Made by a program: the position numbers and the translations under genes | The notes under the pieces: generated by a model | Told to the model about the DNA's origin: nothing | The model's database searches: none | The model's input: the letters and a program-made list of their open reading frames with translations, nothing else | Shown here: in pieces, positions 4,482-64,000 of the stretch | How the letters are laid out: the number at the start of each line of letters is the position of its first letter | How positions within the stretch are numbered: the first letter of the stretch is position 1 | NCBI GenBank assembly: GCA_947627985.1 | Contig: CANQYD010000003.1 | Location: 24,108 to 88,107 of the forward strand | Length of the DNA: 64,000 bases | From: an uncultured Clostridia bacterium | Lineage (GTDB): Bacteria; Bacillota; Clostridia; Oscillospirales; Ruminococcaceae | Direction: 5' to 3'

Positions 4482-4494
4482 GGAGGAGAGAAAA

Positions 4495-4701: not shown

Positions 4702-4714
4702 GGAGGTCGAAGGA

Positions 4715-9604: not shown

Positions 9605-9611
9605 GACCAAC

Positions 9612-9704: not shown

Positions 9705-9865
9705 CGCCCGCACCTTTTTACAGACTCCGGTAGTCGCACCCCCACGCACCCCCCGCTTCCCTCTCTCGCCCCTCTCAGAACCACTCGGCGCAAGCTGCAC
9801 CCCTTGCCGCTCCCTTCATTCCCCGCAAAGCAAAACCCCGTCGCAGATAACCTCAAGCCACAACC

Positions 9866-9900
9866 TCTACCCTCTATCCTCTCCCCTCCATCATCTAACC
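9866..9900 (+). repeat. CT-rich heptamer array abutting a -35 box
   Basis: TCTACCC TCTATCC TCTCCCC TCCATCA TCTAACC, ends 1 nt before TTGACA 9902. Confidence 0.75.
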
Positions 9901-12839: not shown

Positions 12840-12859
12840 GGGGAGGGGCTGGGGAGGGG
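12840..12859 (+). other. Canonical G-quadruplex motif
   Basis: GGGG A GGGG CT GGGG A GGGG after CCCCTCCCC-ACC. Confidence 0.7.
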
Positions 12860-13102
12860 AAAGCCCGGAAAGGGGGCTTGGGGAAAACCCTGCAAGGGTT
12901 GTCCCCAACATAGTAGCAGCGTAGAAGGACTTATATAACGTCTTAAATATAAATATAGTAGTCCCCGCCCTCTCCTACCCCTTGTTAAAAGGTATTCGTT
13001 CATTTTCCCGCCGGAAAATGAACTCATGCTATTTTAAGCAGACCCCCACCCCCATCGAAATCTGTGCAGACTTATAGTAGAGCGGAGCCCCCTCCCCTAA
13101 AA

Positions 13103-13128
13103 GGGGGGAGGGGGCTTGGGGGTGGGGG
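13103..13128 (+). other. G-quadruplex motif
   Basis: GGGGGG A GGGGG CTT GGGGG T GGGGG after CCCCCTCCCC-TAAAA. Confidence 0.7.
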
Positions 13129-13506
13129 TAAAAGCCGGAGGGGTGTGGGGAACCCCGCAGGGGTGCCCCACTGAGCCCCCTCTCCCTTGGGAGAGGGGCA
13201 AGAGCCGGGGGGCGTGGGGAACCCCGTAGGGGTGCCCCACAGTTGTTGAGCAGAGAGAAAAGATAGTAGCAGAAGATTACCTTTAAGTTTAGGAAAGGGG
13301 GGCTTAGGGGGAAAACCCTTTCCAAAAGGGCTTTTCCCCTCATAAGTCAGAGCCGAATTTTAAAAAATCAGAGCTAACAATTGCCGATTTAAATCGTTAA
13401 ATCTACTACGACGCTCCACTTTGCCCGCATACCCCATTTGAATAGTCCCCCATAATCCCCACCCTCACAATAAATCAAAAAATCCACCCCAAAATGCAAA
13501 AAGCTA

Positions 13507-13535: not shown

Positions 13536-13588
13536 AACAGTGTAGCTTGCGGGAAACCGCACTAACAAATGAAAACGGAGGATTTTTT

Positions 13589-14128
13589 ATGAAAAAGATT
13601 TTAGCTGTTATCGTAGCCGTCATGATGGCTATGACTCTCGTTATGAGCGTGTCAGCCGACGAGTATGCAGGCGAGGTCCCTGCCGGTTCCGAGTGGTGGT
13701 ATGAGGTCATGATCAAGGACATCATTCCGCTTGAGAACCTTGAGGGTCACTCTTCCATCACTTTCGGCTGCGACTGCAACTTCGCTGCCGGTTATAACGA
13801 AGGCGACACTTGGATTCAGAGAACCGACCTGAGCACCGAGCCCATCACCATCGATCTTACTACCGCTACCATCAACGACGATTCCAAGATCATGCTCCAG
13901 AAGGGCTCTGCCGGTGCTTTCACCATCACCTACACTCTTGATGACGGCGCTGCCGCTCCTGCCGAAGAGACCCCTGCCGAGGCTCCTGCTGAGACCGAAG
14001 CTGAGGCTCCCGCCGCTGAGGAGACTCCCGCCGAGACTGAGACCAAGGCTCCTGCTACCGGTCTTGCCCTCGCTGTAGTTCCCGCCGTCGTGGCTCTTGC
14101 CGCTGTCGCGGTTTCCAAGAAGCACTAA
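13589..14128 (+). CDS. Small secreted surface protein, paralog 2
   Basis: ORF 13547 trimmed to ATG 13589 (GGAGGA upstream); MKKILAVIVAVMMAM.. ; C-terminus ETKAPATGLALAVVPAVVALAAVAVSKKH. Confidence 0.85.
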   Translation: MKKILAVIVAVMMAMTLVMSVSADEYAGEVPAGSEWWYEVMIKDIIPLENLEGHSSITFGCDCNFAAGYNEGDTWIQRTDLSTEPITIDLTTATINDDSKIMLQKGSAGAFTITYTLDDGAAAPAEETPAEAPAETEAEAPAAEETPAETETKAPATGLALAVVPAVVALAAVAVSKKH

Positions 14129-14243: not shown

Positions 14244-14297
14244 GTTTTCATAGATGCGGTACGCCGCACTAAAAGATGAAATATGGAGGAAATTACC

Positions 14298-14951
14298 ATG
14301 AAGAAAATTCTTGCAATTGCCATAGCCGTCGTTATGGTTATGGCGCTCGCAGTCACCGCTTCCGCAGAGACTATTTACGAGTACACTTCCCCGGTCAAGG
14401 TCGCTTTCGGCTGGACCACCCTTATCCAGAACGGCGACGCCAACGCCACCGACTTCTTTAAGGCGATCGGCACCGAGGGCGCTGTCATCGAGATGATCGC
14501 TACCGACCTTGTCGACGGCGACAGACAGGCTGAGGTCGTTGACGCTTGGTTCCAGATCTGCACTCAGGACACCGTAGGTTGGACTGAGGCTGGCGGTCTC
14601 AAGACCGAGGGTATCGGCGAGACCTACGGCTTCACCGATGAAGGTTATGTCATCACCATTCCCGCCGCAGCTTTCAACGAGATGGTCGTAAACAGCGGCG
14701 TTGATCCCGCCAACCTCTCCATCATTCTCAACGCCGGCGGTTCTTGGGCTAAGTCCGCTTCCAAGATCATTCTGAGAGTTTCCGTTCCCGACGAAGCCGC
14801 CGAGGCTCCCGCAGAAGAGACTCCCGCCGAGGAAGCTCCCGAAGAAGCTCCCGCCGAGACCGAGACCAAGGCTCCTTCCACCGGTATCGCGCTTGCTGTA
14901 ATTCCCGCCGTCATGGCTCTTGCAGCTGTTGCCGTTTCCAAGAAGCACTAA
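14298..14951 (+). CDS. Small secreted surface protein, paralog 3
   Basis: ORF 14283 trimmed to ATG 14298 (GGAGGA upstream); MKKILAIAIAVVMVMALAVTASA; C-terminus ETKAPSTGIALAVIPAVMALAAVAVSKKH. Confidence 0.85.
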   Translation: MKKILAIAIAVVMVMALAVTASAETIYEYTSPVKVAFGWTTLIQNGDANATDFFKAIGTEGAVIEMIATDLVDGDRQAEVVDAWFQICTQDTVGWTEAGGLKTEGIGETYGFTDEGYVITIPAAAFNEMVVNSGVDPANLSIILNAGGSWAKSASKIILRVSVPDEAAEAPAEETPAEEAPEEAPAETETKAPSTGIALAVIPAVMALAAVAVSKKH

Positions 14952-15154: not shown

Positions 15155-15212
15155 ACAATTATGGTTACGCTGACAAATAGCGCGACTAATTAAAGTTATG
15201 GAGGAATATTTT

Positions 15213-15938
15213 ATGAAGAAAATTCTTGCGATCGTCGTCGCTATGATGATGGTCATGGCTCTTTCGGTAAGCATTTTCGCTGACGATATCGACGTATCCG
15301 GCATGGACGTTGCTTTCGAGTGGACCGAAGGCAAGGCTGCACATGACTGGTGGACTGCCAAGGACGTTTTCAGCGCTGACGATTACGCCAAGTTTGTCGA
15401 GGCTCTCGGCATGGACGGCGCTGTCGTTGAAGTCGCCGGCAACAACCCCGGTGCAGGCGGAGCGATGACCAACTTCAACTTTGACTGGGACGGTCACGGC
15501 ATTCTGATGGCCGGCGACGGTCAGTATCCTATGGGCGATTTCGATTGCTTCGCTTCCATGGATCAGCTCAGAGCTGACGGCAAGGTTCCGGATACTATCG
15601 ACAACGTAATTCTTCAGTTCAACATCTATCAGGATGAGACTGACGTAACCGTTTCCAAGGTTGCCGTTTATGTTCCTGCCGGTGCTGCTCCCGAGGCTGA
15701 GGCTGAGGCTGAGGAAACTCCCGCCGAGACCGAGGAAGCTCCTGCTGAGGCTGAAGCTCCCGCCGAAGAGACCCCTGCCGAGGCTCCTGCTGAGACCGAG
15801 GCTGAGGCTCCCGCCGCTGAGGAGACCCCTGCTGAGGCTCCCGCTGCCGAGACCAAGGCTCCTGCCACCGGTTTAGCTCTCGCGGTTGTTCCCGCTGTCA
15901 TGGCTCTTGCCGCTGTTGCGGTTTCCAAGAAGCACTAA
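15213..15938 (+). CDS. Small secreted surface protein, paralog 4
   Basis: ORF 15198 trimmed to ATG 15213; MKKILAIVVAMMMVMALSVSIFA; C-terminus ETKAPATGLALAVVPAVMALAAVAVSKKH. Confidence 0.85.
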   Translation: MKKILAIVVAMMMVMALSVSIFADDIDVSGMDVAFEWTEGKAAHDWWTAKDVFSADDYAKFVEALGMDGAVVEVAGNNPGAGGAMTNFNFDWDGHGILMAGDGQYPMGDFDCFASMDQLRADGKVPDTIDNVILQFNIYQDETDVTVSKVAVYVPAGAAPEAEAEAEETPAETEEAPAEAEAPAEETPAEAPAETEAEAPAAEETPAEAPAAETKAPATGLALAVVPAVMALAAVAVSKKH

Positions 15939-15985: not shown

Positions 15986-16145
15986 TGATTTTTTGTGATT
16001 TGAGGCGCCCGGGGGTGCCTCTTTTTTTGGGGGAATCTTTCAAGATGGCAAAAGGAGGGGATTTTGCCTCGCTTCGCTCGGCAAACCCAAGGGGAGAACC
16101 CTTTATAAAAGGGTTCTCCCCTATAACCCCTCTCCTAAAATCTTT

Positions 16146-16166
16146 CCCCCTCCCCAACCCCTCCCC
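16146..16166 (-). other. G-quadruplex motif on minus strand
   Basis: Plus strand reads CCCCC T CCCC AA CCCC T CCCC. Confidence 0.65.
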
Positions 16167-16310
16167 GGCGGGGAGGGGCTTTTCGCCTCGCTTCGCTCGG
16201 CTCCCGGGCGACTTCGTCGCCGGTTTTTTGTTGGGGGAACCCCCGGCGAGGGTTCCCCCGATGAAAACAGTCCCCCGGACTGTTTTCATTTCCCCCTCCT
16301 GCGCTAATTA

Positions 16311-16348
16311 TGAAAAAAGCAAGACGACGGCTTACGCCGTCCTCTTGC
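16311..16348 (-). terminator. E4 hairpin acting as intrinsic terminator downstream of proC
   Basis: GCAAGAGGACGGCGTAAGCCGTCGTCTTGC followed by TTTTTT when read on the minus strand. Confidence 0.6.
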
Positions 16349-16500
16349 TTAAGGGATTTCGCCCGTTGCGACGGGCGACCAAGGGCTCCGCCCTTGGATT
16401 CCGCCCGCTTTTTAAGGAAAAGCGGGGCAAAACCTTTTTGACTTGTCTTTTAGATGGTAAACTGCTGAATCTGACTTCTGACCTCTCTGTTTTCTGCCTT

Positions 16501-25097: not shown

Positions 25098-25904
25098 ATG
25101 TTAGACTGGTTAATCAATTTTGCAAACACCTACCTCGTTGACTTCGGCGTAAAGATCATCTTAGCGCTGCTTCTTCTGGTGATCGGCTTGAAGGTCGTCA
25201 AGGTCATCATCAAGAAAATCGGCAAGAGCAAGGGCTTTCTGAAGCTCGACACGAACATCGCGGCGCTGATACTCTCGGGTCTCAAGCTTGTTCTGAACAC
25301 GCTGATAATCATCATCGCGGTGCAGATCATCGGCGTTCCGTCGGCGACGGTCATCGCGGCTCTCGGCTCCTGCGGCTTGGCTATCGGTCTTGCCTTGCAG
25401 GGCGGGCTCTCAAATATCGCGGGCGGCGTGATGATCATGGTATTCAAGCCGTTCCACATCGGCGATTTCGTCTCGACATCGGCTGGAGACGGCACGGTCG
25501 AGGATATCGGGCTGTTTTACACGAAGCTCTGCACCATCGACAATCGGCTGATAAATATTCCGAACTCGGTGCTCTCGTCGTCCACCGTCACAAACCTCTC
25601 CGCAAAGCCGGTCAGAGGGCTTGATATCGAGGTCGCGGTCGCATACGGAAGCGATCTCGAAGCTGCAAAGAAGGCGCTTTTAGAGCTTGCCGACAGGAGT
25701 GAGCTGGTCCTTAAGGACCCGGCGCCGATGGCGTTCATCAACGAGCACAGGGAGTCGTCGGTCGTCGTCACGCTGAGGGTTTCGGTGAAGGGAAGCGATT
25801 ACTGGGCTGCGAGGTTTGAGCTGATGCAGAACTCGCTCAAGGCAGTCACCGACGCGGGCGTGACCATTCCGCTGCCGCAGCTTGATGTGCACATGAGAGG
25901 GTAG
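25098..25904 (+). CDS. Small-conductance mechanosensitive channel (MscS family)
   Basis: 268 aa; three N-terminal TM segments, FKPFHIGDFV, NIPNS motif. Confidence 0.85.
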   Translation: MLDWLINFANTYLVDFGVKIILALLLLVIGLKVVKVIIKKIGKSKGFLKLDTNIAALILSGLKLVLNTLIIIIAVQIIGVPSATVIAALGSCGLAIGLALQGGLSNIAGGVMIMVFKPFHIGDFVSTSAGDGTVEDIGLFYTKLCTIDNRLINIPNSVLSSSTVTNLSAKPVRGLDIEVAVAYGSDLEAAKKALLELADRSELVLKDPAPMAFINEHRESSVVVTLRVSVKGSDYWAARFELMQNSLKAVTDAGVTIPLPQLDVHMRG

Positions 25905-26320
25905 AAGTTAGAGAAGTAGAGGTTAGAGACTGCTGGCATCCTTCAGAGAGATAAGTCGAAAAGGTTTTGCCCCGCTTTTCCTCAAAAAGCGGGCGAGAGT
26001 CCAGAGGCGAGGAGCCTCTGGTCGCCCGTCGCAACGGGCGAAATCCCAAAGCAAGAGGACGGCGTAAGCCGTCGTCTTGCTTTTTATTATTCAAAAAGCG
26101 CAGGAGGGAGCATAAGCTGGTTTTGTTGCTGCTCGCACTTCGCAATCGTAAACGATTGATTGCTCGTGCTTGCAGACAAAACCCCGCGTATGCGGATGAA
26201 AACAGTCCGGTGGACTGTTTTCATCGGGGGAACCCTCGCCGGGGGTTCCCCCAACAAAAAACCGGCGACGAAGTCGCCCGAAGCCGAGCGAAGCGAGGCT
26301 CAAATGCCCCCTCTCCCTTA
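25902..26320 (+). repeat. Type I mosaic element (heptamer(rev)-E-D-C-B, truncated in F)
   Basis: E 25947-26090, D 26108-26195, C 26198-26255, B 26264-26278, GAGCGAAGCGAG 26286; ends in GCCCCCTCTCCCTTAG. Confidence 0.9.
26051..26086 (+). terminator. E4 hairpin = intrinsic terminator downstream of mscS
   Basis: GCAAGAGGACGGC-GTAA-GCCGTCGTCTTGC followed by TTTTT. Confidence 0.65.
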
Positions 26321-32505: not shown

Positions 32506-32601
32506 AATTCAGAGGATAGAGAGTCGGAAGATAGAGGATCAAATATTTTTATCCAAGTTTTCCAAATTCTATCTTCTACCCTCTATCCTCTAACTTCTAT
32601 T
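32506..32601. repeat. Inverted pair of heptamer arrays
   Basis: 32506-32534 (complement orientation: ..GGATAGA..AGATAGA) and 32567-32601 (TCTATCT TCTACCC TCTATCC TCTAACT TCTATTC); the latter overlaps the cysK stop. Confidence 0.7.
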
Positions 32602-40003: not shown

Positions 40004-40144
40004 GCAGCATAAGCTAAAACATGCAAATCCAAACCGTCTCTCACTACATTCTAAACCGCTGCATCATAAATTCCCCGGGAGTGTACAAATCGCCCTCATT
40101 ATCCTCACTGATTAAATCTGTCACCAACGGTGACACCTTGAAAT

Positions 40145-40180
40145 TCTGACAATCTGACTTCTGACTTCTGTCCTCTTGAT
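40145..40180 (+). repeat. CT-rich heptamer array
   Basis: TCTGACA(A) TCTGACT TCTGACT TCTGTCC TCTTGAT. Confidence 0.75.
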
Positions 40181-40216
40181 GCGGTCGTTTTGACCACATC
40201 TAATTTCCCTCCCCGA

Positions 40217-40245
40217 TTGACTAATCCCAAAAAATCTGCTAAAAT
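40217..40245 (+). promoter_or_regulatory. Promoter of sbcD
   Basis: TTGACT 40217-40222, 17-nt spacer, TAAAAT 40240-40245. Confidence 0.7.
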
Positions 40246-40264
40246 ACTCAGAAAGGAGGCTGCC

Positions 40265-41407
40265 ATGAAATTTCTTCACCTTTCCGACCTGCACTTGGGC
40301 AAGCGGGTCAGCGAATTTTCGATGATACCCGATCAGGAGCATATCCTCCGGCAAGTCCTCGGGATAATCGACGCCGAGAAGCCTCAAGCGGTCGTCATCG
40401 CGGGGGACGTCTACGACAAATCGGTGCCGTCCGCGGAAGCCGTCCGGCTCTTCGACTTCTTCCTCACAGCCCTTTCCGCAAGGCGTCTTGCGGTCATGAT
40501 CATCGCCGGCAACCACGACTCCCCCGAGCGGCTGTCCTTCGGCGAAAAGCTCTTTAAGCTCGGCGGCGTGCACATCTCCCCGGTCTATGACGGACAAATT
40601 TCCCCCGTCGTTTTGGAAGATGATTTCGGCTGCGTAAACTTCTGGCTCCTGCCTTTTTTGCGGCCTTCGCAGGTGCGCTCGGCTCTTTTGCGCGACGGTA
40701 TCGAGACCTACACCGAAGCCTGCGCCGCCGCTGTTGAAAATTTAAATATAGATCATGCGGCTCGAAACGTCCTCATCTGCCACCAGTTCGTGACCGGGTC
40801 TTTAAGAAGCGAGTCGGAGGAGATATCGGTCGGCGGGTCTGATAATGTTGACGCCGAGGTATTTTCGGGATTTGACTACGTCGCCCTCGGTCATCTTCAC
40901 AGCCCGCAAAACGTAGGTTCGGAGAGATTGAGATACTGCGGCACCCCGCTTAAGTACTCCTTCTCCGAGTGTTCGCATGAAAAATCCGTGACCGTCGTCG
41001 AAATGCTTGAAAAGGGGAATATGAAGATAAAAACCGTCCCCCTGAAGCCTCTTCACGACATGCGTGAAATAAAGGGCACATATTCCGATCTCACGCTTAA
41101 AAAGAATTACGAGAATACCGCGACGGACGATTATCTGCACATAATCCTCACCGACAGCGACGACGTCCCCGACGCGATCGGCAGGCTACGAACGGTATAC
41201 CCGAACATCATGAAGCTCTCCTACGACAACGAGCGGACCCGGGGCGAGGCATTTATCCCCGACGGCGAGGCTAAAGCCGAGACCCCGTATGAGCTGTTCG
41301 GCGAATTTTTCGAGCGGCAGAACGGCAGGAAGATGAGCACCGATCAGGAAAAGATAATAACGGATCTCATCGAAAAAATCTGGAGCGAAAGACAGATAAG
41401 CCGATAA
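40265..41407 (+). CDS. sbcD: Exonuclease SbcCD, nuclease subunit D (Mre11-like)
   Basis: ORF 40190 trimmed to ATG 40265 (AGGAGG upstream); MKFLHLSDLHLG, AGDVYD, GNHDS, GHLH motifs. Confidence 0.85.
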   Translation: MKFLHLSDLHLGKRVSEFSMIPDQEHILRQVLGIIDAEKPQAVVIAGDVYDKSVPSAEAVRLFDFFLTALSARRLAVMIIAGNHDSPERLSFGEKLFKLGGVHISPVYDGQISPVVLEDDFGCVNFWLLPFLRPSQVRSALLRDGIETYTEACAAAVENLNIDHAARNVLICHQFVTGSLRSESEEISVGGSDNVDAEVFSGFDYVALGHLHSPQNVGSERLRYCGTPLKYSFSECSHEKSVTVVEMLEKGNMKIKTVPLKPLHDMREIKGTYSDLTLKKNYENTATDDYLHIILTDSDDVPDAIGRLRTVYPNIMKLSYDNERTRGEAFIPDGEAKAETPYELFGEFFERQNGRKMSTDQEKIITDLIEKIWSERQISR

Positions 41408-45029: not shown

Positions 45030-45622
45030 AGGGGAAGACAAGGCAAGTTTAGGATCAAGCCCTTTTTAAAGGGCTTGCGGAATCCAAGGGCGGAGCCCTT
45101 GGTCGCGCTCCGCAGAGCGCGAAATCCCTGCAAAAAGGACAGCGAAAGCTGTCCTTTTTGCCTTTATCGTTCAAATGAGGGCGACGAAGTCGCCCGAAGC
45201 CGGAGGGGTGTCAGCAGAAGCTGGTTTTGTAGCCAATCGCACTTCGCAATCGTAAACGACTGATTGCTCGTGCTCTTGGACAAAACCCCGCGTCTGCGGG
45301 AACCGTGCAACGGTGCCCCACAGCCGGAAAAGGGGTTTGGGGAAAACCCGGCACGGGTTGTCCCCAACATAGTAGTGGTATCGAACAGTAATTCCCTCCC
45401 GCCCGACCCTTAGTTAAAAGGTATTCGTTCATTTTCCTGCCGGAAAATGAACTCATGTTATTTGAAGCAGACCCCCGCCCCCGTCGAAGTCTGTACAGAC
45501 TTATAGTCGAGCGGAGCCCCCTCCCCCTAAAAGGGGGAGGGGGTCTGGGGGTGGGGGTGAGAGCCGGAGGGTCGTGGGGAACCGTGCAACGGTGCCCCAC
45601 AGCCGAGCGCAGCGAGGCACCC
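45030..45622 (+). repeat. Type I mosaic element (E-B-D-A-G-F-A)
   Basis: E 45036-45168 (divergent stems, same fold), B 45180-45194, D 45205-45300, A 45302-45321, G 45405-45475, F/G4 45518-45557, A 45560-45601. Confidence 0.9.
45533..45557 (+). other. G-quadruplex motif
   Basis: GGGGG A GGGGG TCT GGGGG T GGGGG preceded by CCCCCTCCCCC-TAAAA. Confidence 0.7.
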
Positions 45623-47918: not shown

Positions 47919-50804
47919 TTACTGTATGGCTTCGACATGATCGAGCTCGCAGCCGTCCAAGACGTTCTGACCGCCGATGACGCATACTCCCGCTTCATCG
48001 AGCACCCGATCGAGCATGTCCGCAAAATCGCAAAGTTCCTTTTCGCCGGTCTCCATCATCTCCCTGCGCTCGCGTTTGACGTCCTCCTCGGTGATACCTC
48101 CCAAGAACCGCCTTGCAGCCTGTTCGCCCTCGGCTCTCGGAGTTAAGAGCGGGTCGTCGTTTGCAATCGTGCTGATGATGTATTTCTCCACCGACTCTTT
48201 TCTGTCGCAGAAGTCTCTTAAGACCTGAGCGCATGCGCGGAAGCTTCCAAGCGATCTTGCAGGCGAGGGATCGCGGTAGCTTGAGAAGCTAACGCTTCCG
48301 TCGTACGGGGTGTTCATGTGGACGCCGTATGCTCCGCCTTTGACTCTGACGTCGTTCCAGAGGTAGTCGTATGTGAGAAGCTGGGCGGCGACTTTAGCGT
48401 ATCCTCCGCAGCTCTTGCCGGTGAGGTTTGCGGCGGTTGCGGCAAAGCCGATCTGAGCGGGCACCGAGAATCCGCAGGAGCCCTTCGGGAGGGTTTTATA
48501 TTCCGCGTCGGCGCCGATCTCGGAGGCGTTCATGATACCGGAAAGCTTGCGGCAGAGTTCATCGTCCGGCCGACCGGTGAGGGAGATTATCATCCTCTTT
48601 GAAGAGAAAATTTTTCTGTAGATTTTTTCAAGCCCGCGGCAGATTTCTTCCCCGCGCTCGGAAAATTCGCCGTCGGTTTTTTGAAGATATCTAAGCATTT
48701 CAATGCCGCCCACAGCCTCTGAAATCGCGTCTTTGGCGGTGAATGACGCGAGCACCCGCCTTGTGCCGTAGCCGTTTCCGCGAACGGCGACAGCCTGCTC
48801 GGTGTTGAGCCTGATCTGACGCAGGACGTTGTAGATAGTGGTCGTATCGTCAAAGCGGGAGCGGTTTAAAATCTCGTCGGCAAGGCGGACCGCTTCCTCC
48901 CTGTTCTTTTCAAGAACCGCAATACGGACGTTGAACATCGGGTTGGCGATTTTTGTCTGACCCGTGGGAGCGGACACAGCCATCTGCGTCGTGAACCGAC
49001 CGAGAGACGCCTGAAGCTCGGAGCTTAAATCGAGTACCGAGTAATTTTCGGTCGGAATGTCGGTCAGGATTTTTGATATCAGCGAAGCGGCTTGCAGCTC
49101 TGTCATATCAAAATCGCGAAGGGTGAAGTAGATGTCGATATATGCTATGCCGTCGGTCGCGATGTCCTGATTCAAGACGGTCACATCGCCGATCTTTGAG
49201 ACCTTCTGCGGGCAGATTTTTACGTCTTTCGGGATATCGCTGAGCTTAAGCTTCGGGAGTTTGTCGATGAGTTCGGGGGAATCGGGGGTCTCCTGACGGG
49301 TCCTTAATTCTTTGAATTCACGCATGACCCGCTCGGTTTCCGATTTGTCCCAGCCGGCTTTTATCTTGGCGCAGCGCTCTGCCTCGCGCTTGCTCTTCTC
49401 CTCGCCCAAAGTCTTTGAGGGAAGCAGGCAGACCTTTCCGCAGTGGGGATTGTCAAGAAATACATCTTTAATAAGATTTTCAAACCAGCCCTCGTCAACT
49501 TTTTTTCTCAGGGAGGCAAACACCCCGTTGAGGCAGAGATTCTGTGCGGGGTCGCCGCCGTAGAGCCAGCTCTCGTAGGTCGTGAGGGCGTAGACAAGAC
49601 CCTTCGGCATGCCTCCGAAGTCCTTCTCTCTCACGCTGAATTCCCGGCGGCTCAGTATCCCAAGAAGGTGCTTTTTGTCAAGACCGGTCTCGGAAAGTTC
49701 CTTGAGTTTATCTTCGACCAGCTTCCAGATTTCCCCGCGCTTTTCGGGGTCGCAGTTTTTGATGATGAGGTTTACGGAGGGCTGCTGCACGCCGTCGTAG
49801 TTATACATCGATACGTCCTCGGCAAGACCTGCGTCAAGTATCGCCTTTGTAAGAGGGGAGTCGTTGGTCTCGCAGAGAGCGTCGGCAAGGACGGATAAGC
49901 CCATTATCTTCTCCAAATCCTTATAATCGGCATATACCCAGCCTGTTGAGATGATCGCCTTGTTTTTGTCGTCCTCCGAGGCGCCGATCTCATATTCGGC
50001 AACTCTTTCAGCCGGGTGGACGGGCTTTTGCATCGGGATATCGGAATCGATCTTAAGGCGGTCAAATTTTCCGATGAAGCTGTCGATCTTTTCAAGAGCC
50101 GCGTCGATATCGAGATCGCCGTCAAGGACTATGCGGGAATTCGACGGGTGATAGAATTTGCGGTGATTTTCAAGATATTTTTCATAAGTCAGCTCGGGGA
50201 TATGTTCGGGGTGCCCGCCGGAGTCGTAGCTGTAGCAGTTGTCGGGGAAGAGGGCGTTGCTCATCTCAAACGTCATAACGTCGTCTTTGGAGGCGTACGC
50301 GCCCTTCATCTCGTTATATACGACGCCGTTGAAGCGCAGTTCGCCGTCCTCGGAATCGAGCTCATAGTGCCAGCCCTCCTGCAAGAACGCGTGGGGATTT
50401 TTGACGGAAAGAGGGTTGATGACCGCGTCGAGATAGACGTCCATCAGGTTCAAAAAATCCTGCGGATTGCGGGAGCTGACGGGATATACGGTCTTGTCGG
50501 GGTAGGTCATCGCGTTCAGAAACGTCGCCATCGAGCTCTTGATGAGTTCCACAAACGGCTCTCTGACGGGGTATTTCTCGGAGCCGTTGAGTACGGAATG
50601 CTCCAGAATATGGAAAACTCCCGTGTGGTCGGAGGGAATGGTCTTGAAGCCGATCGAGAAGGTCTTGTTCTCGTCGTCCCGCTGAAGCCACACAAGATCG
50701 GCGCCGTTTTTTACATGCTCAAGCCGCCACATGACCGCGTCGATCTCAGAAAGATCGGTCTTTGAGAGAACACGGAAGCCGTGGATTATGTCGTTTATCT
50801 GCAT
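47919..50804 (-). CDS. M16-family (insulinase/PreP-like) zinc metallopeptidase
   Basis: 961 aa; HxxEH motif in GVFHILEHSVLNGS, downstream E in NAMTYPDKT region. Confidence 0.85.
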   Translation of the reverse strand: MQINDIIHGFRVLSKTDLSEIDAVMWRLEHVKNGADLVWLQRDDENKTFSIGFKTIPSDHTGVFHILEHSVLNGSEKYPVREPFVELIKSSMATFLNAMTYPDKTVYPVSSRNPQDFLNLMDVYLDAVINPLSVKNPHAFLQEGWHYELDSEDGELRFNGVVYNEMKGAYASKDDVMTFEMSNALFPDNCYSYDSGGHPEHIPELTYEKYLENHRKFYHPSNSRIVLDGDLDIDAALEKIDSFIGKFDRLKIDSDIPMQKPVHPAERVAEYEIGASEDDKNKAIISTGWVYADYKDLEKIMGLSVLADALCETNDSPLTKAILDAGLAEDVSMYNYDGVQQPSVNLIIKNCDPEKRGEIWKLVEDKLKELSETGLDKKHLLGILSRREFSVREKDFGGMPKGLVYALTTYESWLYGGDPAQNLCLNGVFASLRKKVDEGWFENLIKDVFLDNPHCGKVCLLPSKTLGEEKSKREAERCAKIKAGWDKSETERVMREFKELRTRQETPDSPELIDKLPKLKLSDIPKDVKICPQKVSKIGDVTVLNQDIATDGIAYIDIYFTLRDFDMTELQAASLISKILTDIPTENYSVLDLSSELQASLGRFTTQMAVSAPTGQTKIANPMFNVRIAVLEKNREEAVRLADEILNRSRFDDTTTIYNVLRQIRLNTEQAVAVRGNGYGTRRVLASFTAKDAISEAVGGIEMLRYLQKTDGEFSERGEEICRGLEKIYRKIFSSKRMIISLTGRPDDELCRKLSGIMNASEIGADAEYKTLPKGSCGFSVPAQIGFAATAANLTGKSCGGYAKVAAQLLTYDYLWNDVRVKGGAYGVHMNTPYDGSVSFSSYRDPSPARSLGSFRACAQVLRDFCDRKESVEKYIISTIANDDPLLTPRAEGEQAARRFLGGITEEDVKRERREMMETGEKELCDFADMLDRVLDEAGVCVIGGQNVLDGCELDHVEAIQ

Positions 50805-50833
50805 AGTGATTTCTCCTTTCAGGGTTTGGTTTA

Positions 50834-50862
50834 ATTTTAACAGAAAAGAGGGGAGATGTCAA
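50834..50862 (-). promoter_or_regulatory. Promoter of M16 peptidase gene
   Basis: Minus strand TTGACA (50862-50857), 17-nt spacer, TAAAAT (50839-50834). Confidence 0.7.
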
Positions 50863-50896
50863 GGCAGAAGACAGATGTGAGAAGTCAGAGGACAGA
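50862..50896 (-). repeat. CT-rich heptamer array (5 units) abutting the -35 box
   Basis: Minus strand reads TCTGTCC TCTGACT TCTCACA TCTGTCT TCTGCCT and runs straight into TTGACA. Confidence 0.8.
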
Positions 50897-51062
50897 GGCG
50901 GAGCTTAAAATACGACATCTGATGGCTGAATTTTGGCGGGGTGGGAGATTGGGTACGGGGTTGGGTGCCACTGACGTACCTTGATAGGAGCAGAGGGAAA
51001 AAGATAAGAATCTGTCCTCTGCCTTCTGATATCTGTACTCTGTGCGACCGGAGGGAGCAGGA

Positions 51063-51149
51063 GGGCGAAGCCCCCGGCGACGAAGTCGCCGGCTGCCACG
51101 GCTTCGCCGTGGCAGCGCCCGCGCGCGAGCGCGCGGGCGGGCTTCGCCC
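51063..51149 (+). repeat. Clamped triple-hairpin module (unit A)
   Basis: Clamp 51063-51073 / 51139-51149; GGCGAC-GAA-GTCGCC, GCTGCCACGGC-TTC-GCCGTGGCAGC, GCCCGCGCG-CGAG-CGCGCGGGC. Confidence 0.85.
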
Positions 51150-51354
51150 GTGCCCCCCCTGCTTCTATCGGGGTTTGGTAGGATACGCAAGCCCGGTGCC
51201 GGGGTGGGTGCCCCTGACGAACCCCGGCAGGAGCAGGAGGCTGGGCACAGGGTTGGGCGCCCCTCCCGAACCCCGGCAGGAGTAGAGGGAAAAAGATAAG
51301 AATCTGTCCTCTGCCTTCTGATATCTGTCCTCTGTGCGACCGGAGGGAGCAGGA

Positions 51355-51436
51355 GGGCGAAGCCCCGCTGCCTCCGGCAGCGCGCCGACGCGCAGCGTCG
51401 GCGGTGACCGCGCTCGCGCGCGGGCGGGCTTCGCCC
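51355..51436 (+). repeat. Clamped triple-hairpin module (unit B)
   Basis: Clamp 51355-51365 / 51426-51436; GCTGCC-TCC-GGCAGC, CGCCGACGC-GCA-GCGTCGGCG, imperfect CCGCGC..GCGCGG. Confidence 0.8.
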
Positions 51437-51636
51437 GTGCCCCTGCTCCTATCAAGGCTTAGTAGGATACGCAAGCCCGGTGCCGGGTTGGGTGCCCCTG
51501 ACGGACCCCGGCAGGAGCAGGAGGCTGGGCACAGGGTCGGGTGCCCCTCCCGAACCCCGGCAGGAGCAGAAGGAAAAAGATAAAATCTGTCCTCTGCCTT
51601 CTGATATCTGTCCTCTGTGCGACCAACGGGAGCACC

Positions 51637-51713
51637 GGGCGAAGCCCCGCTGCCGAAGGCAGCGCGCCGACGCGGCGCGTCGGCGGTGCGACTTCGTCGC
51701 ACGGGCTTCGCCC
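51637..51713 (+). repeat. Clamped triple-hairpin module (unit C)
   Basis: Clamp 51637-51647 / 51703-51713; GCTGCC-GAA-GGCAGC, CGCCGACGC-GGC-GCGTCGGCG, GTGCGAC-TTC-GTCGCAC. Confidence 0.85.
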
Positions 51714-51806
51714 GCCCCCACCCCTCCTCCCCGCCCCAACGCCCTCACCCCTCTAAATATACAATCTCCCCGCCCCATTTTGCAAAATTATCGTGCAAAA
51801 CGCTGA

Positions 51807-51836
51807 TTGACAAAAGCCCCCGGGGTATATTATAAT
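51807..51836 (+). promoter_or_regulatory. Promoter of the leu/ilv operon leader
   Basis: TTGACA 51807-51812, 18-nt spacer, TATAAT 51831-51836. Confidence 0.75.
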
Positions 51837-51854
51837 TGTATCACTAATATTAAA

Positions 51855-52112
51855 GGCGATGACGAAGAAGGCAAAAGTCGGGTCGATTCAAAGAGAGCCG
51901 GTGGTTGGTGAAAACCGGCAGAAGCCCGCTGTGAGCCCCTCGCTTCCGAGCCGGCTGTCTGAACATTTAAAGTAGGATTGCCCGTGACTGCTGCGTTAAT
52001 GCATAGGAATTGTTGGATTCCAAGAGCGGCGGATTTTTCCGCAATTTGAGTGGTACCGCGAGTGTATGATATCTGCACCCGTCTCAAAGAAATCTTTGGG
52101 GCGGATTTTTTA
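51855..52112 (+). promoter_or_regulatory. T-box riboswitch leader, specifier read as CUC (Leu)
   Basis: GGCGAUGACGAAG (51855-51867) pairs with CUUCCGAGCC (51943-51952). AGAGAG plus distal loop GGTTGGTGAAAACC. CTC-G at 51939-51942. T-box AATTTGAGTGGTACCGCG at 52043-52060. Terminator plus T-run at 52078-52112. Confidence 0.85.
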
Positions 52113-58384: not shown

Positions 58385-59964
<1,580 letters not shown>

Positions 59965-59992
59965 TACGAACCGAGGCGGGGAGGGGACTGCC

Positions 59993-60067
59993 GGGCTAAG
60001 CCCCGCCGCGTTACACGCGGCGAGGCGCCCTTCGGGCGCCTGTTCGCTTTGCGAACGGGCTTCGCCC
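59993..60067 (+). repeat. Clamped triple-hairpin module in the ilvC-ilvD spacer
   Basis: GGGCTAAGCCC (59993-60003, one change) / GGGCTTCGCCC (60057-60067); GCCGCG-TTACA-CGCGGC, AGGCGCCC-TTC-GGGCGCCT, GTTCGC-TTT-GCGAAC. Confidence 0.8.
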
Positions 60068-60152
60068 GGGTACCCGACTTCCGCAGCGTAAAAAATATCT
60101 CGCACTACCGCCGGGCATATCCCGGCTGTATGCAGTTTAAGCAGGTGATTTT

Positions 60153-61808
60153 ATGAAAAGCGACAACATTAAATTCGGTCCGCAGAATGCCCCTCACCGC
60201 GCGCTTTACCACGCGCTGGGCTTCACCGAGGAGGAGATAAATCGCCCGATGGTCGGCATCGTCAGCTCCTACAACGAGATCGTCCCGGGGCACATGAACA
60301 TCGACAAGATTGTGGACGCCGTGAAATTGGGCGTCGCGATGGCTGGCGGTACACCGGTGGTGTTCCCGGCGATTGCCGTCTGCGACGGGATAGCTATGGG
60401 TCACACCGGCATGAAATACTCCCTCGTCACCCGCGATCTCATAGCCGACTCCACCGAGGCGATGGCTCTCGCGCACGGCTTTGACGCGCTCGTGATGGTC
60501 CCGAACTGCGACAAAAATGTCCCGGGTCTTCTGATGGCTGCCGCAAGGCTCAATATCCCGACGGTATTCGTATCGGGAGGTCCCATGCTCGCGGGTCATG
60601 TCGACGGGCACAAGACCAGTTTCTCATCGATATCCGAAGCCGTCGGCGAATTCAACGCGGGCAAAATCGACCTTGAAAAGCTGCATGAATATGAGTGCAA
60701 GACCTGTCCGACATGCGGCTCCTGCTCGGGAATGTACACCGCCAACTCGATGAACTGCCTCACCGAAGCCCTCGGCATGGGCTTAAGGGGAAACGGCACT
60801 ATCCCGGCGGTCTATTCTCAGAGGATAGAGCTTGCAAAACATGCGGGTATGCAGGTCATGGAGCTTCTTAAGAAGAATATCCGCCCTCGGGATATCATGA
60901 CCGAAGCGGCTTTCATGAACGCTCTCACGGTCGATATGGCTCTCGGCTGCTCGACCAACTCGATGTTGCATCTCCCCGCGATCGCGCATGAATGCGGGAT
61001 AGAGATCAATCTCGATATCGCAAACTCCATCAGCGCCAAGACCCCGAACCTCTGCCACCTCGCCCCCGCCGGAAGGACCTATGTCGAAGAGCTCGATGAA
61101 GCGGGAGGAGTCTGGGCTGTCATGAATGAACTTTCAAAGAAGAATCTTCTGAACCTCGACTGCATGACCGTCACCGGCTCGACCGTCGGCGAGAACATCA
61201 AAACCGCCGTCAACATGAATCACGACGTCATCAGACCCGTCGAGAACCCCTACAGCGAGACGGGCGGAATTGCGGTCCTAAGAGGAAATCTCGCGCCCGA
61301 CGGCTGCGTCGTGAAGAGGTCTGCCGTATCCCCGAAGATGCTAAAATATGAGGGAAAAGCCCGCGTATTTGAGTGCGAGGAGGACGCTCAGGCTGCTATC
61401 AACGCCTCCGAAATCAAGCCGGGAGACGTCGTCGTCATCCGATACGAGGGACCGAAAGGCGGTCCGGGTATGCGCGAGATGCTGAATCCGACCTCGGCTA
61501 TCATGGGCATGGGTCTTGGCGAGAGCGTCGCGCTCATCACCGACGGCAGATTTTCGGGAGCTACAAGAGGCGCCTGCGTGGGACACATATCCCCCGAAGC
61601 GGCTTCCGGCGGACCCATCGGCATCGTCAAAGAGGGGGACATCATCGCGATCGATATCCCCGAAAACAAGATCGAGCTTAAAATCCCCGAGGAGGAATTT
61701 AACGCCCGCATGGCTGCGTTCGTACCGAAAAAGAAGGAGCTTTCGGGCTATCTGAAGAGGTACGCGGAGCTTGTATCATCGGGCGCAAAGGGTGCTATAC
61801 TGAACTAA
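60153..61808 (+). CDS. ilvD: Dihydroxy-acid dehydratase
   Basis: 551 aa; [37 protein letters not shown]. Confidence 0.9.
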
Positions 61809-61857
61809 ACGGCAGCGGGGAGGCTCTTACGGGATTGGGTGCTGATAAAGGGTCAGG

Positions 61858-61940
61858 GGGCGAAGCCCCCGTCGCGCGAAGCGCGACGGCGCCGCCTTCG
61901 GCGGCGGCGAGCCGACTTCGTCGGCTCGCGGGCTTCGCCC
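61858..61940 (+). repeat. Clamped triple-hairpin module 3' of ilvD
   Basis: GGGCGAAGCCC 61858-61868 / GGGCTTCGCCC 61930-61940; GTCGCGC-GAA-GCGCGAC, GCCGCC-TTC-GGCGGC, GAGCCGAC-TTC-GTCGGCTC; C-run tail follows. Confidence 0.85.
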
Positions 61941-62013
61941 GAACCCTCCTCCCGCTCCCGCCCCCGTAACCTTTCCTCCCGCTGCCTCCCTTTATAGGAA
62001 AGGAGAGCATTTT

Positions 62014-63195
62014 ATGACAGGCGATCTTGAGGCGCTGCGCGTCGGCATTCGCTCGCTTACGGTATTCCGCGGCATTTCCGCCGACCCGCTTCTTACGGCT
62101 CTTGCCGATTTTTTGGATTCGGGGGACGATCCCGCAGAGCAGGTCGATAAATACTGCGCCTTCGCTCACACCCTTTATGAAAGCGGCTCCGACAGCCTAA
62201 CGGCTTATGTGAGAGAACTTGTGAGATGCTGCGAGACCCCGGTCTCGGAGCTTCTGGGCGTCGAGAAAAAGGTCCCGCCCGAGATGATGAAAAGCGCCGA
62301 AAACGAGCTGAAACTCTTAAGCCGAATCGCCGTTCTGACGCCCGATGATCTTCAAAAAAATATCGGCTTTAAGATCGATCTTCCCGGCTGGGAGACAGAA
62401 AAAGCCGACCTCTTGGGGGATTACTCGGAGCAGATGAAAAACATCTCAAAGCGCGGGTACGGAATCTATGCAAAATACAAGGCGTTCCGGCTCGTCGGCA
62501 AAAGCGTCATGCCGATCGAATACCCCGACCCCGTCCGCCTAAGCGAACTGATCGGCTACAGGCTTGAAAAGGAGCAGATAATCCTGAACACAAGGGCGCT
62601 CATAACGGGCAAGCCCGCGGCAAATATCCTCCTGACGGGCGACGCCGGGACCGGCAAATCATCGACCGTAAAAGCCGTCGTGAACGAGCTCTGGGAGGAG
62701 GGCTTGCGGATCCTCGAACTTAAAAAAGAGCAGCTCCACGACCTGCCGGAGGTGCTCTCGGAGCTGAACAGAAATCCTCTTAAATTTATTATATTTATTG
62801 ACGATCTGTCCTTCACCTCAAACGACGACAACTTCTCGGCGCTCAAGGCGATCTTGGAGGGAACGGTATCCGCAAGAGCCCGAAACGTCGTCATCTACGC
62901 GACTTCGAACCGCCGTCACCTAATTAAGGAGAGCTTTTCCGACCGCGACGGCGACGATATCCACCGCAACGACACAATGCAGGAGACAGTCTCGCTTTCC
63001 GAGAGATTCGGCTTGCATATTACGTTTTCGCGTCCCGATAAGGCGACCTATCTCGACATCGTCGAACACCTCTGCAAGGAAGCGGGGGTCAGGTTTGACC
63101 CGACCGACGCGGAACGCTTCGCACTTACCCGCGCCTCCCGCTCGGCAAGAGCCGCAAGACAGTATGTGGACAGCTTGGTGGCAGGGGAAGAGTAG
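62014..63195 (+). CDS. AAA-type ATPase of the DUF815 family
   Basis: 393 aa; LLTGDAGTGKSS Walker A, FIIFIDDLSF Walker B, ATSNRRHL. Confidence 0.75.
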   Translation: MTGDLEALRVGIRSLTVFRGISADPLLTALADFLDSGDDPAEQVDKYCAFAHTLYESGSDSLTAYVRELVRCCETPVSELLGVEKKVPPEMMKSAENELKLLSRIAVLTPDDLQKNIGFKIDLPGWETEKADLLGDYSEQMKNISKRGYGIYAKYKAFRLVGKSVMPIEYPDPVRLSELIGYRLEKEQIILNTRALITGKPAANILLTGDAGTGKSSTVKAVVNELWEEGLRILELKKEQLHDLPEVLSELNRNPLKFIIFIDDLSFTSNDDNFSALKAILEGTVSARARNVVIYATSNRRHLIKESFSDRDGDDIHRNDTMQETVSLSERFGLHITFSRPDKATYLDIVEHLCKEAGVRFDPTDAERFALTRASRSARAARQYVDSLVAGEE

Positions 63196-63260
63196 GAAAG
63201 GGCGGAAAGGTTTGGAAAGTTTTTCTTGACAAATCAGCCCACCCGTGCTATAATTATTGT

Positions 63261-63327
63261 CGGCATAAACGCATCGATTTTACAAAAAGCAACCGCCGGC
63301 TGCAAGCTTGGAGGTTGCTTTATTTTT
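63261..63327 (+). ncRNA. Candidate small RNA 1 (about 67 nt)
   Basis: Own promoter TTGACA 63226-63231 / 17 nt / TATAAT 63249-63254; terminator AAGCAACC..GGTTGCTT plus TATTTTT ending at 63327; no ORF. Confidence 0.5.
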
Positions 63328-63367
63328 GGTATTGACAAAATTGAGAAGATGTGCTATTATAATAGCA

Positions 63368-63450
63368 GAGAGCTGAACGGCTTAACCGTTCAGAATCAAT
63401 TACACGAAGCAACCGCCATGAACTTGCAAGCACTGGCGGTTACTTTTTTA
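63368..63450 (+). ncRNA. Candidate small RNA 2 (about 83 nt)
   Basis: Own promoter TTGACA 63332-63337 / 17 nt / TATTAT 63355-63360; 5' hairpin CTGAACGG-CTTA-ACCGTTCAG; terminator AACCGCCA..TGGCGGTT plus TTTTTT. Confidence 0.5.
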
Positions 63451-63593
63451 TTTCACGGATGATTTCTAAGAAAACGAGAAGAATAATCAAAATGATGTAT
63501 AGATTCTCATTCATCGCGCATACCCCCTTTCGGGGCTTCGCCGCCACAGCTCTCTGCTTTTTGTATTATATCATGCCCGCCATAAAATGTCAA

Positions 63594-63626
63594 TCCCGCC
63601 CGGTTTCACCCGAGCGGGACATTTTT
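63594..63626. terminator. Bidirectional terminator-like hairpin 3' of the minus-strand activase-like gene
   Basis: TCCCGCCCGG-TTTCA-CCCGAGCGGGA with flanking T/A runs. Confidence 0.5.
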
Positions 63627-63641
63627 ATGCCTATTAACCTT

Positions 63642-64000
63642 TTACACCTTTACCTCTTCCGGATTACGCGTCTCCGCCTCCGCCTTTTCCTCCTTCATCG
63701 CCTTCTTGGCGGAGCTGAGCATGAGCTTTATGCGGTTGAGTTGGTTGACCTCCGAGGCGCCGGGGTCGTAATCGACGGCGGCGATGTTTGCCTGCGGGTA
63801 AACTTTTTTAAGGTGCTTTATCATTCCCTTGCCGACGACGTGATTCGGCAGGCATGCAAAGGGCTGAATGCAGACGATATTCGGCACGCCGCTCTCCAAA
63901 AGTTCAGCCATCTCTCCCGTCAGGAACCACCCTTCGCCGTACTGATTTCCGAGGCTTAAAAACTGCTTCGCAAGGTTGGCGACGTCTTTTATCGGCATCG
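63642..64000 (-). CDS. C-terminal part of a BcrAD/BadFG-type CoA-enzyme activase-related protein (continues beyond window)
   Basis: ..GWFLTGEMAELLESGVPNIVCIQPFACLPNHVVGKGMIKHLKK..DYDPGASEVNQLNRIKLML; stop at 63642. Confidence 0.7.
   Translation of the reverse strand, partial: MPIKDVANLAKQFLSLGNQYGEGWFLTGEMAELLESGVPNIVCIQPFACLPNHVVGKGMIKHLKKVYPQANIAAVDYDPGASEVNQLNRIKLMLSSAKKAMKEEKAEAETRNPEEVKV

Follow-up and report, generated by a model that had tools for sequence, protein, structure and literature searches.

Clamped three-hairpin repeats upstream of leuA are copies of an apparently undescribed palindromic repeat of gut Clostridia

We analysed a stretch of 64,000 nucleotides from a contig of an uncultured Clostridia bacterium (CANQYD010000003.1, positions 24,108 to 88,107; henceforth the window), in which three tandem units stand upstream of the gene leuA. 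These units are copies of an abundant, apparently undescribed palindromic repeat present in some gut Clostridia. The core of the repeat is a module of 75–95 bp, which consists of GGGCGAAGCCC, three abutting perfect hairpins (H1, H2 and H3, in this order) and then GGGCTTCGCCC; the two outer sequences form an 11-bp inverted repeat, which we will refer to as the clamp, while the inner palindromes have 3-nt centres, mostly 5'-C(GNA)G-3' or its complement. Modules of this design are real and widespread, and they make up a repeat family that is apparently undescribed. Our preferred reading, to which we assign a probability of about 0.6, is that of a new family of palindromic repeats comparable to repetitive extragenic palindromes (REPs) and bacterial interspersed mosaic elements (BIMEs), or to MITEs (miniature transposable elements with inverted repeats), with arms kept perfect by DNA-level processes.

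Module architecture and copies in the window

With at most one mismatch allowed, the clamp half GGGCGAAGCCC or its complement was found at 19 places in the window, where 2.4 would be expected; none of 100 shuffles reached this number. Seven pairs of halves (141/212, 9621/9687, 51063/51139, 51355/51426, 51637/51703, 59993/60057 and 61858/61930) delimit full modules that start at 141, 9621, 51063, 51355, 51637, 59993 and 61858, in agreement with the seven counted in an earlier note on this DNA; the left half at 59993 is GGGCTAAGCCC, with one mismatch, and an unpaired left half at 426 is part of a truncated unit. Inside each of the seven clamp pairs, a search for perfect hairpins found three abutting stem-loops. 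When the modules were folded as single-stranded DNA (ssDNA), all seven gave the clamp plus three hairpins, with folding free energies (dG) of -37 to -51 kcal/mol and z-scores of -6.7 to -9.3; none of 200 shuffles folded as well, and the minimum-energy structure made up about 70% of the ensemble. In each of these predicted folds, the clamp halves pair around the three hairpins and thereby close a four-way junction, as had been proposed earlier. The one module that was also folded on its reverse strand (51637–51713) gave the same structure and energy there, and we predict from these folds that either single strand of a module forms a perfect four-way junction.

The array upstream of leuA spans 50905–51795 and holds approximately three tandem units with periods of 292 and 283 bp, as given by the starts of GTGCGACC at 51042, 51334 and 51617; Tandem Repeats Finder placed a repeat at 50986–51688 (period 284, 2.5 copies, 87% matches). 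The coordinates, counts and spacings given in the earlier note were confirmed by these positions and by those of the clamp pairs. None of the units was assigned a strand. Unit A (50924–51215; repeat family D1 is in register at 50924 and 51216) comprises one G-rich sub-repeat, an A-rich tract, CT heptamers, GTGCGACC, the module and a short C-rich return arm. Unit B (51216–51498) has two G-rich sub-repeats, with its remaining parts ordered as in unit A, and unit C, together with a C-rich tail that reaches the leuA promoter, occupies 51499–51795. The CT heptamers of unit A (TCTGNCC-like, about 4.7 copies, forward strand, 51011–51043) have equivalents at 51303–51335 and 51586–51618; the tract, earlier described as five phased heptamers, is present but loose, with a period of 7, 4.7 copies and 69% matches in Tandem Repeats Finder.

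Module A (51063–51149; dG -50.8, z -9.0) reads clamp, CCGGCGAC-GAA, GCTGCCACGGC-TTC, CGCCCGCGCG-CGAG, clamp, and scored 55.9 bits on the forward and 51.7 bits on the reverse strand with the covariance model R1 described below. Module B (51355–51436; 37.7 and 35.5 bits, dG -44.8, z -6.7) reads clamp, CGCTGCC-TCC, CGCCGACGC-GCA, CCGCGC-TCGC, clamp, its third arm being degenerate, and module C (51637–51713; identical fold on both strands, dG -43.1) reads clamp, CGCTGCC-GAA, CGCCGACGC-GGC, GTGCGAC-TTC, clamp. Copies that share stems differ in their loops as previously described: stem CGCTGCC bears the loops GCA, TCC and GAA, and stem CGCCGACGC the loops TTC, GCA and GGC. The flanks of units A and B are almost the same, yet their H1 and H2 are unrelated. 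The interior of unit B is a mosaic in which the first two hairpins are those of unit C (which recur at 9621) and the third, H3, is like that of unit A. Within the window, the stem sets that had been called unrelated thus reflect wholesale swaps of hairpin sets between copies rather than in-place compensatory change.

Six composite units can be aligned in the window: the three at leuA, two at 3–440 upstream of another T-box promoter (a full module at 141–222, and a second unit truncated just past its left clamp at 426–436), and one at 9483–9700 upstream of a GH5 cellulase gene, with its module at 9621–9697. They share a G-rich left arm (about 150 nt, 70–95% conserved), an A-rich tract, loose CT heptamers, GTGCGACC-N3-GGGAGCA and the left clamp, in this order, whereas the interiors past the left clamp differ wholesale between copies. 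The two remaining modules lie between genes: one in the ilvC–ilvD spacer (59993–60067), the other at 61858–61940 in the ilvD–DUF815 spacer, where it tips an imperfect palindrome of about 180 bp (61811–61987; ssDNA dG -78.4, z -9.0).

Three contigs of the same species from other samples, whose IlvD is 100% identical to that of the window, reproduce these modules base for base: the ilvC–ilvD module in three, the ilvD–DUF815 module in two and unit C in one (L115, which matches exactly from ~51529 onward). Contigs L114 and L115 terminate within unit C or next to it, which leaves a single assembly as the basis for three copies at leuA. The array is a lineage-specific tandem amplification, in three copies, of a composite, non-coding intergenic repeat.

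Distribution, covariation and turnover of the family

We scanned one genome per species for the clamp pattern and obtained at least 98 loci. Among the matches listed, most belonged to metagenome-assembled genomes (MAGs) that originate from rabbit caecum and rumen and represent uncultured Clostridia, Oscillospiraceae or Ruminococcaceae. The interiors in these gut Clostridia were almost always three abutting perfect hairpins, which together fill more than 90% of the interior and have a great variety of stems, while clamp-pattern matches in other phyla, which serve as a natural control, mostly contained 0–1 perfect hairpins and in no case three. Perfect hairpins cover 0.86 of module interiors compared with 0.23 in dinucleotide shuffles (0 of 1680 shuffles reached 0.8), and 126 distinct stems were counted in the family. 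Viral contigs yielded seven clamp-pattern matches, none with a triple-hairpin interior; blastn found no match in plasmids, and a metagenome scan with a 30-base unit-specific pattern gave 0 matches. Among the matches listed, the family is confined to a clade of gut Clostridia, i.e., Oscillospiraceae/Acutalibacteraceae-like MAGs from rabbit caecum and rumen.

The clamp is invariant in sequence across species and fixed in polarity, with GAA first and TTC second in the 5' to 3' direction: the corresponding column pair of the model alignment is A-U in 143 rows, G-C in 5 and U-A in 0, and no right–left clamp pairs were found at module spacing. Its halves lie 50–79 nt apart in 110 cases (short form) and 130–139 nt apart in 18 (long form), and the number of arms is three both in the short form and in those copies of the long form for which a fold was inspected. 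Clamp, H1 and H3 are shared by the two forms, but in the long form the middle arm measures about 95 nt and contains a moderately conserved AT-rich core (e.g., TTGCAAAA..GAATTTTCTGCCATTTATAAAG); this form occurs in L018 (3344–4558) as well as in L022, L041, L045, L055, L063, L064, L080, L087 and L089, frequently in tandem with short modules, and the short form looks like its internal-deletion derivative. Tandem module arrays were found in the window and in loci L018, L042 and L089. The array in L018 has a 465-bp period, alternates short modules with the long form and stops 6 nt before a -35-like box (read by eye). A module in the Ruminococcaceae genome RUG14213 (L017, 4961–5042; 52% GC overall) keeps the GC-rich clamp around the AT-rich stems AAAACC/GGTTTT and CAAAAGGCT/AGCCTTTTG, so that the architecture is independent of GC-rich arms.

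Covariation was assessed with model R1, which we built from three equal-length modules of other species only, because a MAFFT alignment of the seven window modules misaligned hairpins of unequal length. On the window, R1 recovered exactly the seven modules and no other full copy (E-values 2.5e-11 to 2.9e-5) and scored them almost equally on the two strands; across 579 kb of related loci it gave 185 matches from 71 sources. In the resulting alignment, whose counts are subject to the inflation discussed in the next section, 97.3% of cells formed standard pairs, compared with 63.1% after shuffling and about 42% when the partner was slid, and the covariation score was 0.737 against 0.142, a value that none of 500 shuffles reached. 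Changes on both sides were seen in 37 of 39 pairs, and one-sided changes in fewer than 1% of cells. The replacement of stem sequence under a conserved fold goes far beyond chance and beyond simple decay, and it is seen across paralogues, species and orthologous sites.

A scan of the window against Rfam 15 at the gathering threshold returned only two T-boxes, and relaxed scans (E up to 10) of 50800–51850 and of the L018 array returned noise or nothing; the earlier note, too, had not recognised the architecture as a named family. In the literature, the clamp 11-mer appeared only in unrelated primer and sequence lists, and we found no description of such repeats in Clostridia or Ruminococcaceae. 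The outcomes that the earlier note had named as speaking against its interpretation (only near-identical copies, no covariation support, assignment to a known element) contrast with what we found, namely independent stem sets, covariation exceeding that of shuffles and no Rfam match.

Orthologous sites can be filled or empty. The ilvD–DUF815 spacer is 205 nt long and contains a module in the window, compared with about 10 nt in L025, L117 and L118; L025 (Lapin-015__bin65) is syntenic with window positions 59458–64000 at 76–91% identity across aligned blocks, and the IlvD of L117 and L118 is 96% identical. The ilvC–ilvD module is present both in the window and in L025, whereas the corresponding spacer of L117 is 91 nt long without a module. 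In L025, the interior of this module is inverted between the clamps while the flanks are collinear, so that the hairpin order is reversed and the middle loop is GAA instead of TTC; the earlier claim that both number and order of the hairpins are kept therefore holds for their number and fails for their order. At another site, a single module has been retained at the orthologous position in three species (L028, L058 and L076; flanks 81–90% identical), where the stems differ by compensated changes and the H1 loop is TTC, GAA and TTC, respectively. The left edge of this module coincides with a synteny breakpoint (L028 6930–6958 versus L076 4014–4021 and L058 2883–2930), upstream of which about 2.4 kb are inverted. 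A target-site duplication at the ilvD–DUF815 insertion was not readable, the filled and empty sites being too diverged.

At the leu locus, the whole array lies upstream of both divergent -35 boxes, since the leuA promoter (TTGACA-18-TATAAT, 12 of 12 matches in the promoter scan) is located at 51807–51836 on the forward strand and the predicted promoter of the divergent M16 peptidase gene (47919–50804, reverse strand) at 50862–50834 on the reverse strand (11 of 12 matches, with a TG extension). The leu operon T-box leader follows at 51850–52089 on the forward strand (RF00230, 102.1 bits); like the leuA promoter, it is outside the repeat, and neither it nor the second T-box match of the window (588–817) overlaps a composite unit. 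The position of the array next to the leu leader had been described correctly, but its tie to the T-box proved incidental. An exact look-up of LeuA returned no record, and relatives were found via homologues. Promoter and T-box have both been kept in four related species (L099, L102, L103 and L104; LeuA 95, 92, 91 and 85% identical), with a TTGACA -35 box readable in the same context in each (read from the sequence, not by promoter scan); upstream of that box, however, the sequence is unrelated, the gene is a different one each time, and model R1 found no module. The units appear not to be part of T-box or leu regulation, because these relatives have the promoter and the T-box without them. 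A regulatory function of the units upstream in the leu T-box operon, such as that of sites for a leucine-responsive regulator, would agree with the presence of composite units before both T-box promoters of the window; given that the same composite unit precedes the GH5 cellulase gene, that modules occur at dozens of unrelated loci, and that the comparative data contradict it, we consider such a function very improbable. In L099, the closest relative, the ~2 kb upstream of leuA (3031–5001) hold a tRNA-Ala(CGC) at 3366–3441 and different, lower-GC direct repeats, e.g., ggaactatataagattatttctccgtgagctc at ~3481 and 3727.

Interpretation and rival explanations

Several features of the modules bear on whether the fold is maintained in RNA or in DNA. 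G·U pairs account for 21 of 3186 pairs (0.66%). The loops fit the d(C-GNA-G) type in sequence, i.e., a GNA triloop closed by a 5'C-G3' pair: 163 of 252 (65%) read GAA, GGA or GCA or the complement of one of these, and the closing pair is 5'C-G3' in 211 of 252 cases (84%). Counted together with complements, the loops number 65 for GAA+TTC, 55 for GGA+TCC, 43 for GCA+TGC and 4 for GTA+TAC, and the frequencies of the central nucleotide hence match the stability order A>G>C>T published for d(GCGNAGC) mini-hairpins (PMC13037366). GNA and TNC loops are mixed within single modules with near-random polarity (72 versus 47), a bias too weak for loop polarity to be used as a marker of orientation. Identical 9-bp stems bear up to eight different loops, which implies that loops change much faster than stems. 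By gene context, modules in relatives were found in tandem (25), divergent (7) and convergent (4) spacers, a classification confounded by spurious open reading frames (ORFs) through the GC-rich repeats, which place 37 of 84 modules 'inside an ORF'. Of the two substrates that the earlier note had left open, RNA or single-stranded DNA, the low G·U content, the strand symmetry and the C(GNA)G loops that follow DNA stability favour DNA.

Template switching within palindromes is documented to yield, in a single event, perfect stems, compensatory changes of several bases and inverted loops (PMC8794818). The idea that the pattern reflects selection on structure therefore stands in so far as the fold is kept while the sequence changes, but selection is not the only process that gives such a pattern; template switching would explain most of it without selection on RNA. 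We consider it most likely that the family spreads and is maintained at the DNA level. It would then behave like selfish or neutral DNA of the REP/BIME or MITE type, and what was observed, i.e., insertion polymorphism at some orthologous sites, inversion of interiors between the clamps, tandem amplification, internal deletion, exchange of hairpin sets and breaks in short-read assemblies, is REP/BIME- or MITE-like behaviour. In such a process, arms would stay complementary as their sequence drifts because each event of intra-palindrome template switching or conversion would use one arm as the template for the other, a copying that would also invert loops, and there may be an added preference for hairpins that are stable as single-stranded DNA. 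The invariant clamp could be the recognition site of a putative protein that mobilises or binds the element. As a side effect, copies within operons (the ilvC–ilvD and ilvD–DUF815 spacers) would be transcribed into very stable RNA, perhaps altering mRNA decay as REPs do in E. coli.

A number of points weigh against this DNA-level reading. The covariation alignment was fitted to R1 and includes both strands of many modules, and its counts are inflated as a result. Template switching predicts neither the constant number of three arms nor an invariant clamp with GAA...TTC polarity while the inner loops flip; a fixed arm number and an invariant clamp therefore indicate a constraint, functional or mechanistic, and their constancy suggests recognition by a protein or a structural requirement for the four-way junction. 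No transposase or other recurrent mobilising gene was found beside modules in the 98 loci listed or in the window: when ORFs from the loci with modules were clustered all against all, the recurrent families were exclusively housekeeping ones (MATE, BipA, PrfC, response regulators and a CotH-like protein), and no transposase was present among the 30 window ORFs scanned with Pfam. With neither a transposase nor a readable target-site duplication, mobility is inferred from presence and absence only. Finally, the orthologous retention of one module in three species and the modules and arrays that abut promoters would both also fit a function for the host.

One competing view is that of a structured RNA selected for its fold, a cis-acting four-way-junction RNA that would block 3'-exonucleases, be cut by RNase III, or insulate or attenuate transcription, with the repeats as its genes. 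Very strong covariation, orthologous sites included, is what it would produce; the predicted RNA fold reaches -77.4 kcal/mol over 116 nt, two window copies lie between adjacent same-strand ilv genes and are probably co-transcribed with them, and REPs of E. coli do act at the RNA level. We nevertheless regard this explanation as unlikely, because G·U pairs are rare, conservation is lacking at unpaired nucleotides, loops are hypervariable, both strands score alike, and the triloops obey the C(GNA)G rule of DNA and are not the tetraloops typical of stable RNA hairpins. The inverted interior at the orthologous site in L025, the position of the leuA units upstream of both divergent promoters, the modules in divergent spacers elsewhere and the close relatives without a module in the same operon spacers argue in the same direction, and for unit B with its flanks the z-score of the RNA fold is only -3.1. 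A DNA element that serves the host when extruded or single-stranded, be it a supercoiling sink, an insulator, a site for junction or nucleoid proteins, or a single-strand priming signal comparable to the GNA mini-hairpins found in ssiA and in the origin of phage G4, would account for the invariant sequence and polarity of the clamp, for a geometry of always three arms and for the many copies that abut promoters, among them the three units between divergent promoters, the L018 array at 6 nt from a -35-like box, and the L028/L058/L076 module, which is kept in three species upstream of a conserved promoter (read by eye). Its loops are also of a type known from primase and virion RNA polymerase (vRNAP) recognition hairpins (PMC13037366). 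Such a role is rather doubtful, however, given that the element proved dispensable at each of the orthologous sites compared, namely at the leuA promoter and in both ilv spacers, that its distance to the -35 box varies from 6 to ~200 nt, and that copies also lie between genes within operons. Moreover, GC-rich arms of 7–12 bp extrude poorly from duplex DNA, and no candidate protein was found among the window ORFs scanned or the neighbours of modules.

We further considered a structure-defined mobile or invertible element of a new kind, whose single-stranded, Holliday-junction-like four-way junction would have its clamp read by a putative structure-specific enzyme (such as a junction resolvase, HUH nuclease or recombinase) that mobilises, inverts or amplifies the element, while the arms would be regenerated by hairpin-templated synthesis. 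If true, this would explain why there are always three arms, why the clamp is conserved, why the arms are replaced more quickly than the flanks, and why the loops match the stability of DNA hairpins; we hold it to be possible but improbable. An assembly artefact or a chance pattern in GC-rich sequence, to which one might attribute the breaks of same-species short-read contigs at the array and a copy number of three taken from one assembly, is scarcely credible, as independent assemblies contain unit C and both operon modules in identical form, none of the shuffles reproduced the pattern, and the family occurs in many MAGs from different studies.

How the repeat compares with known systems can be stated in more specific terms. 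With REP, BIME and REPIN elements of enterobacteria and pseudomonads it shares short GC-rich extragenic palindromes in high copy (seven modules in 64 kb) that form mosaic or tandem composites, sites both between operon genes and between operons, variation among related strains and species, association with rearrangement breakpoints, and hairpins that are very stable if transcribed. It differs from them in that REP/BIME units are imperfect palindromes of 20–40 nt, single or in doublets, whereas modules measure 75–95 nt and have a fixed clamp around three perfect hairpins; modules also lack a conserved 5' tetranucleotide (no GTAG at the clamp or hairpin bases), have perfect Watson–Crick arms with GNA triloops, combine hypervariable inner arms with an invariant clamp, and reside in a Firmicute clade. 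No gene for a RAYT (Y1 HUH transposase) was present among the 30 Pfam-scanned window ORFs or the recurrent neighbours in the 98 listed loci, whole genomes being outside this search. MITEs (Correia/NEMIS, ERIC, RUP, BOX and bcr1) are likewise non-coding, 80–300 bp long and bounded by terminal or subterminal inverted repeats, and they too show insertion polymorphism, a modular make-up (BOX A-B-C) and coexisting long and internally shortened forms. Here, the inverted repeats are the 11-bp clamp, the palindrome at 61811–61987, which can fold as a long hairpin, and the inverted heptamer flanks in Lapin-033__bin31 loci, and only spurious ORFs run across the repeats. No target-site duplication or parent insertion sequence was identified in the loci compared. 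Unlike in MITEs, conservation lies in the internal clamp rather than at the outer ends, and the interior consists of perfect mini-palindromes that turn over instead of decaying.

The clamp halves themselves contain the GCGAAGC/GCTTCGC of d(GCGNAGC) DNA mini-hairpins (Hirao, Yoshizawa et al.; PMC13037366), and the inner loops are mostly C(GNA)G or its complement; that motif, however, is a physico-chemical one of phage and plasmid priming sites and a phage promoter, and no interspersed hairpin-string element is described there (PMC13037366). Template-switch (quasi-palindrome) mutation has its hallmarks in the modules, where perfect stems, one-event multi-base compensatory changes and loop inversions are all seen, but it is a mutational mechanism rather than an element (PMC8794818). 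The high covariation, the defined multi-stem fold and the adjacent T-box recall the structured RNAs of Rfam, from which the repeat is set apart by the lack of any match beyond noise, by a T-box model that covers 51850–52089 only, and by orthologous leaders without units. A CRISPR array was rejected as an identification, as the units are composites of 283–292 bp, the repeated 11-mers are inverted, the interiors are palindromic, and no Cas family was found among the Pfam-scanned window ORFs; a reading as integron attC sites was also considered and rejected.

If the preferred DNA-level reading is correct, a clade of uncultured herbivore-gut Clostridia carries an undescribed interspersed repeat, probably in hundreds of copies per genome, that is defined by its shape rather than its sequence: a perfect four-way junction with DNA-optimised triloops. 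Overwhelming covariation, which R-scape-style tests would score as evidence of a structured RNA, may here stem from the dynamics of DNA palindromes, a matter of relevance to pipelines for the discovery of non-coding RNAs. The family would also offer a natural system in which to study template switching and quasi-palindrome correction, and in which to search for a clamp-reading protein. In practical terms, the repeats break short-read assemblies and mark hot spots of rearrangement and insertion in MAGs, and their copies within operons may change mRNA stability.

Other repeats and genes in the window

The window contains a second, larger family of mosaic hairpin-string repeats, with copies at 3211–3700, 7107–7840, 12400–13250, 16090–16430 (inverted), 25948–26320 and 45056–45620. 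These lie mostly immediately 3' of genes; they open with a hairpin that resembles a terminator (CCCGCTTTT..AAAAGCGGG) and continue with GC-rich hairpins in a fixed series, in which compensated stem changes can be seen (e.g., CGAGGGGC/GCCCCTCG, CAAGGGGC/GCCCCTTG and CCAGAGGC/GCCTCTGG). The hairpin GGCGAC-GAA-GTCGCC is common to this family and to module A. Arrays of a 7-bp repeat (TCTGACC-like or its complement) are located at 3159–3190, 9069–9101, 9570–9601, 9864–9897, 25901–25929, 32567–32600, 40144–40170 and 50860–50900, in both orientations and at the borders between genes and repeat-rich spacers; in the loci of Lapin-033__bin31, modules have the same heptamers on either side, where they form inverted repeats. 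Such arrays could be protein-binding sites or the ends of elements.

An ORF at 40190–41407 encodes an SbcD-type nuclease (Metallophos and SbcD_C domains). SbcCD cleaves hairpin and palindromic DNA, and this ORF may be relevant to the tolerance of many palindromes in this genome. Four paralogous ORFs (11501–12211, 13547–14128, 14283–14951 and 15198–15938), which have no Pfam match, carry long repetitive tails rich in Glu, Ala, Pro and Thr, encoded by GAGGCTCCCGCC-type DNA repeats. The second T-box leader (588–817) precedes an ORF (788–3157) with HTH, cupin and AMP-binding domains, an unusual T-box target, whose true start is probably further downstream because the listed GTG at 788 overlaps the leader.

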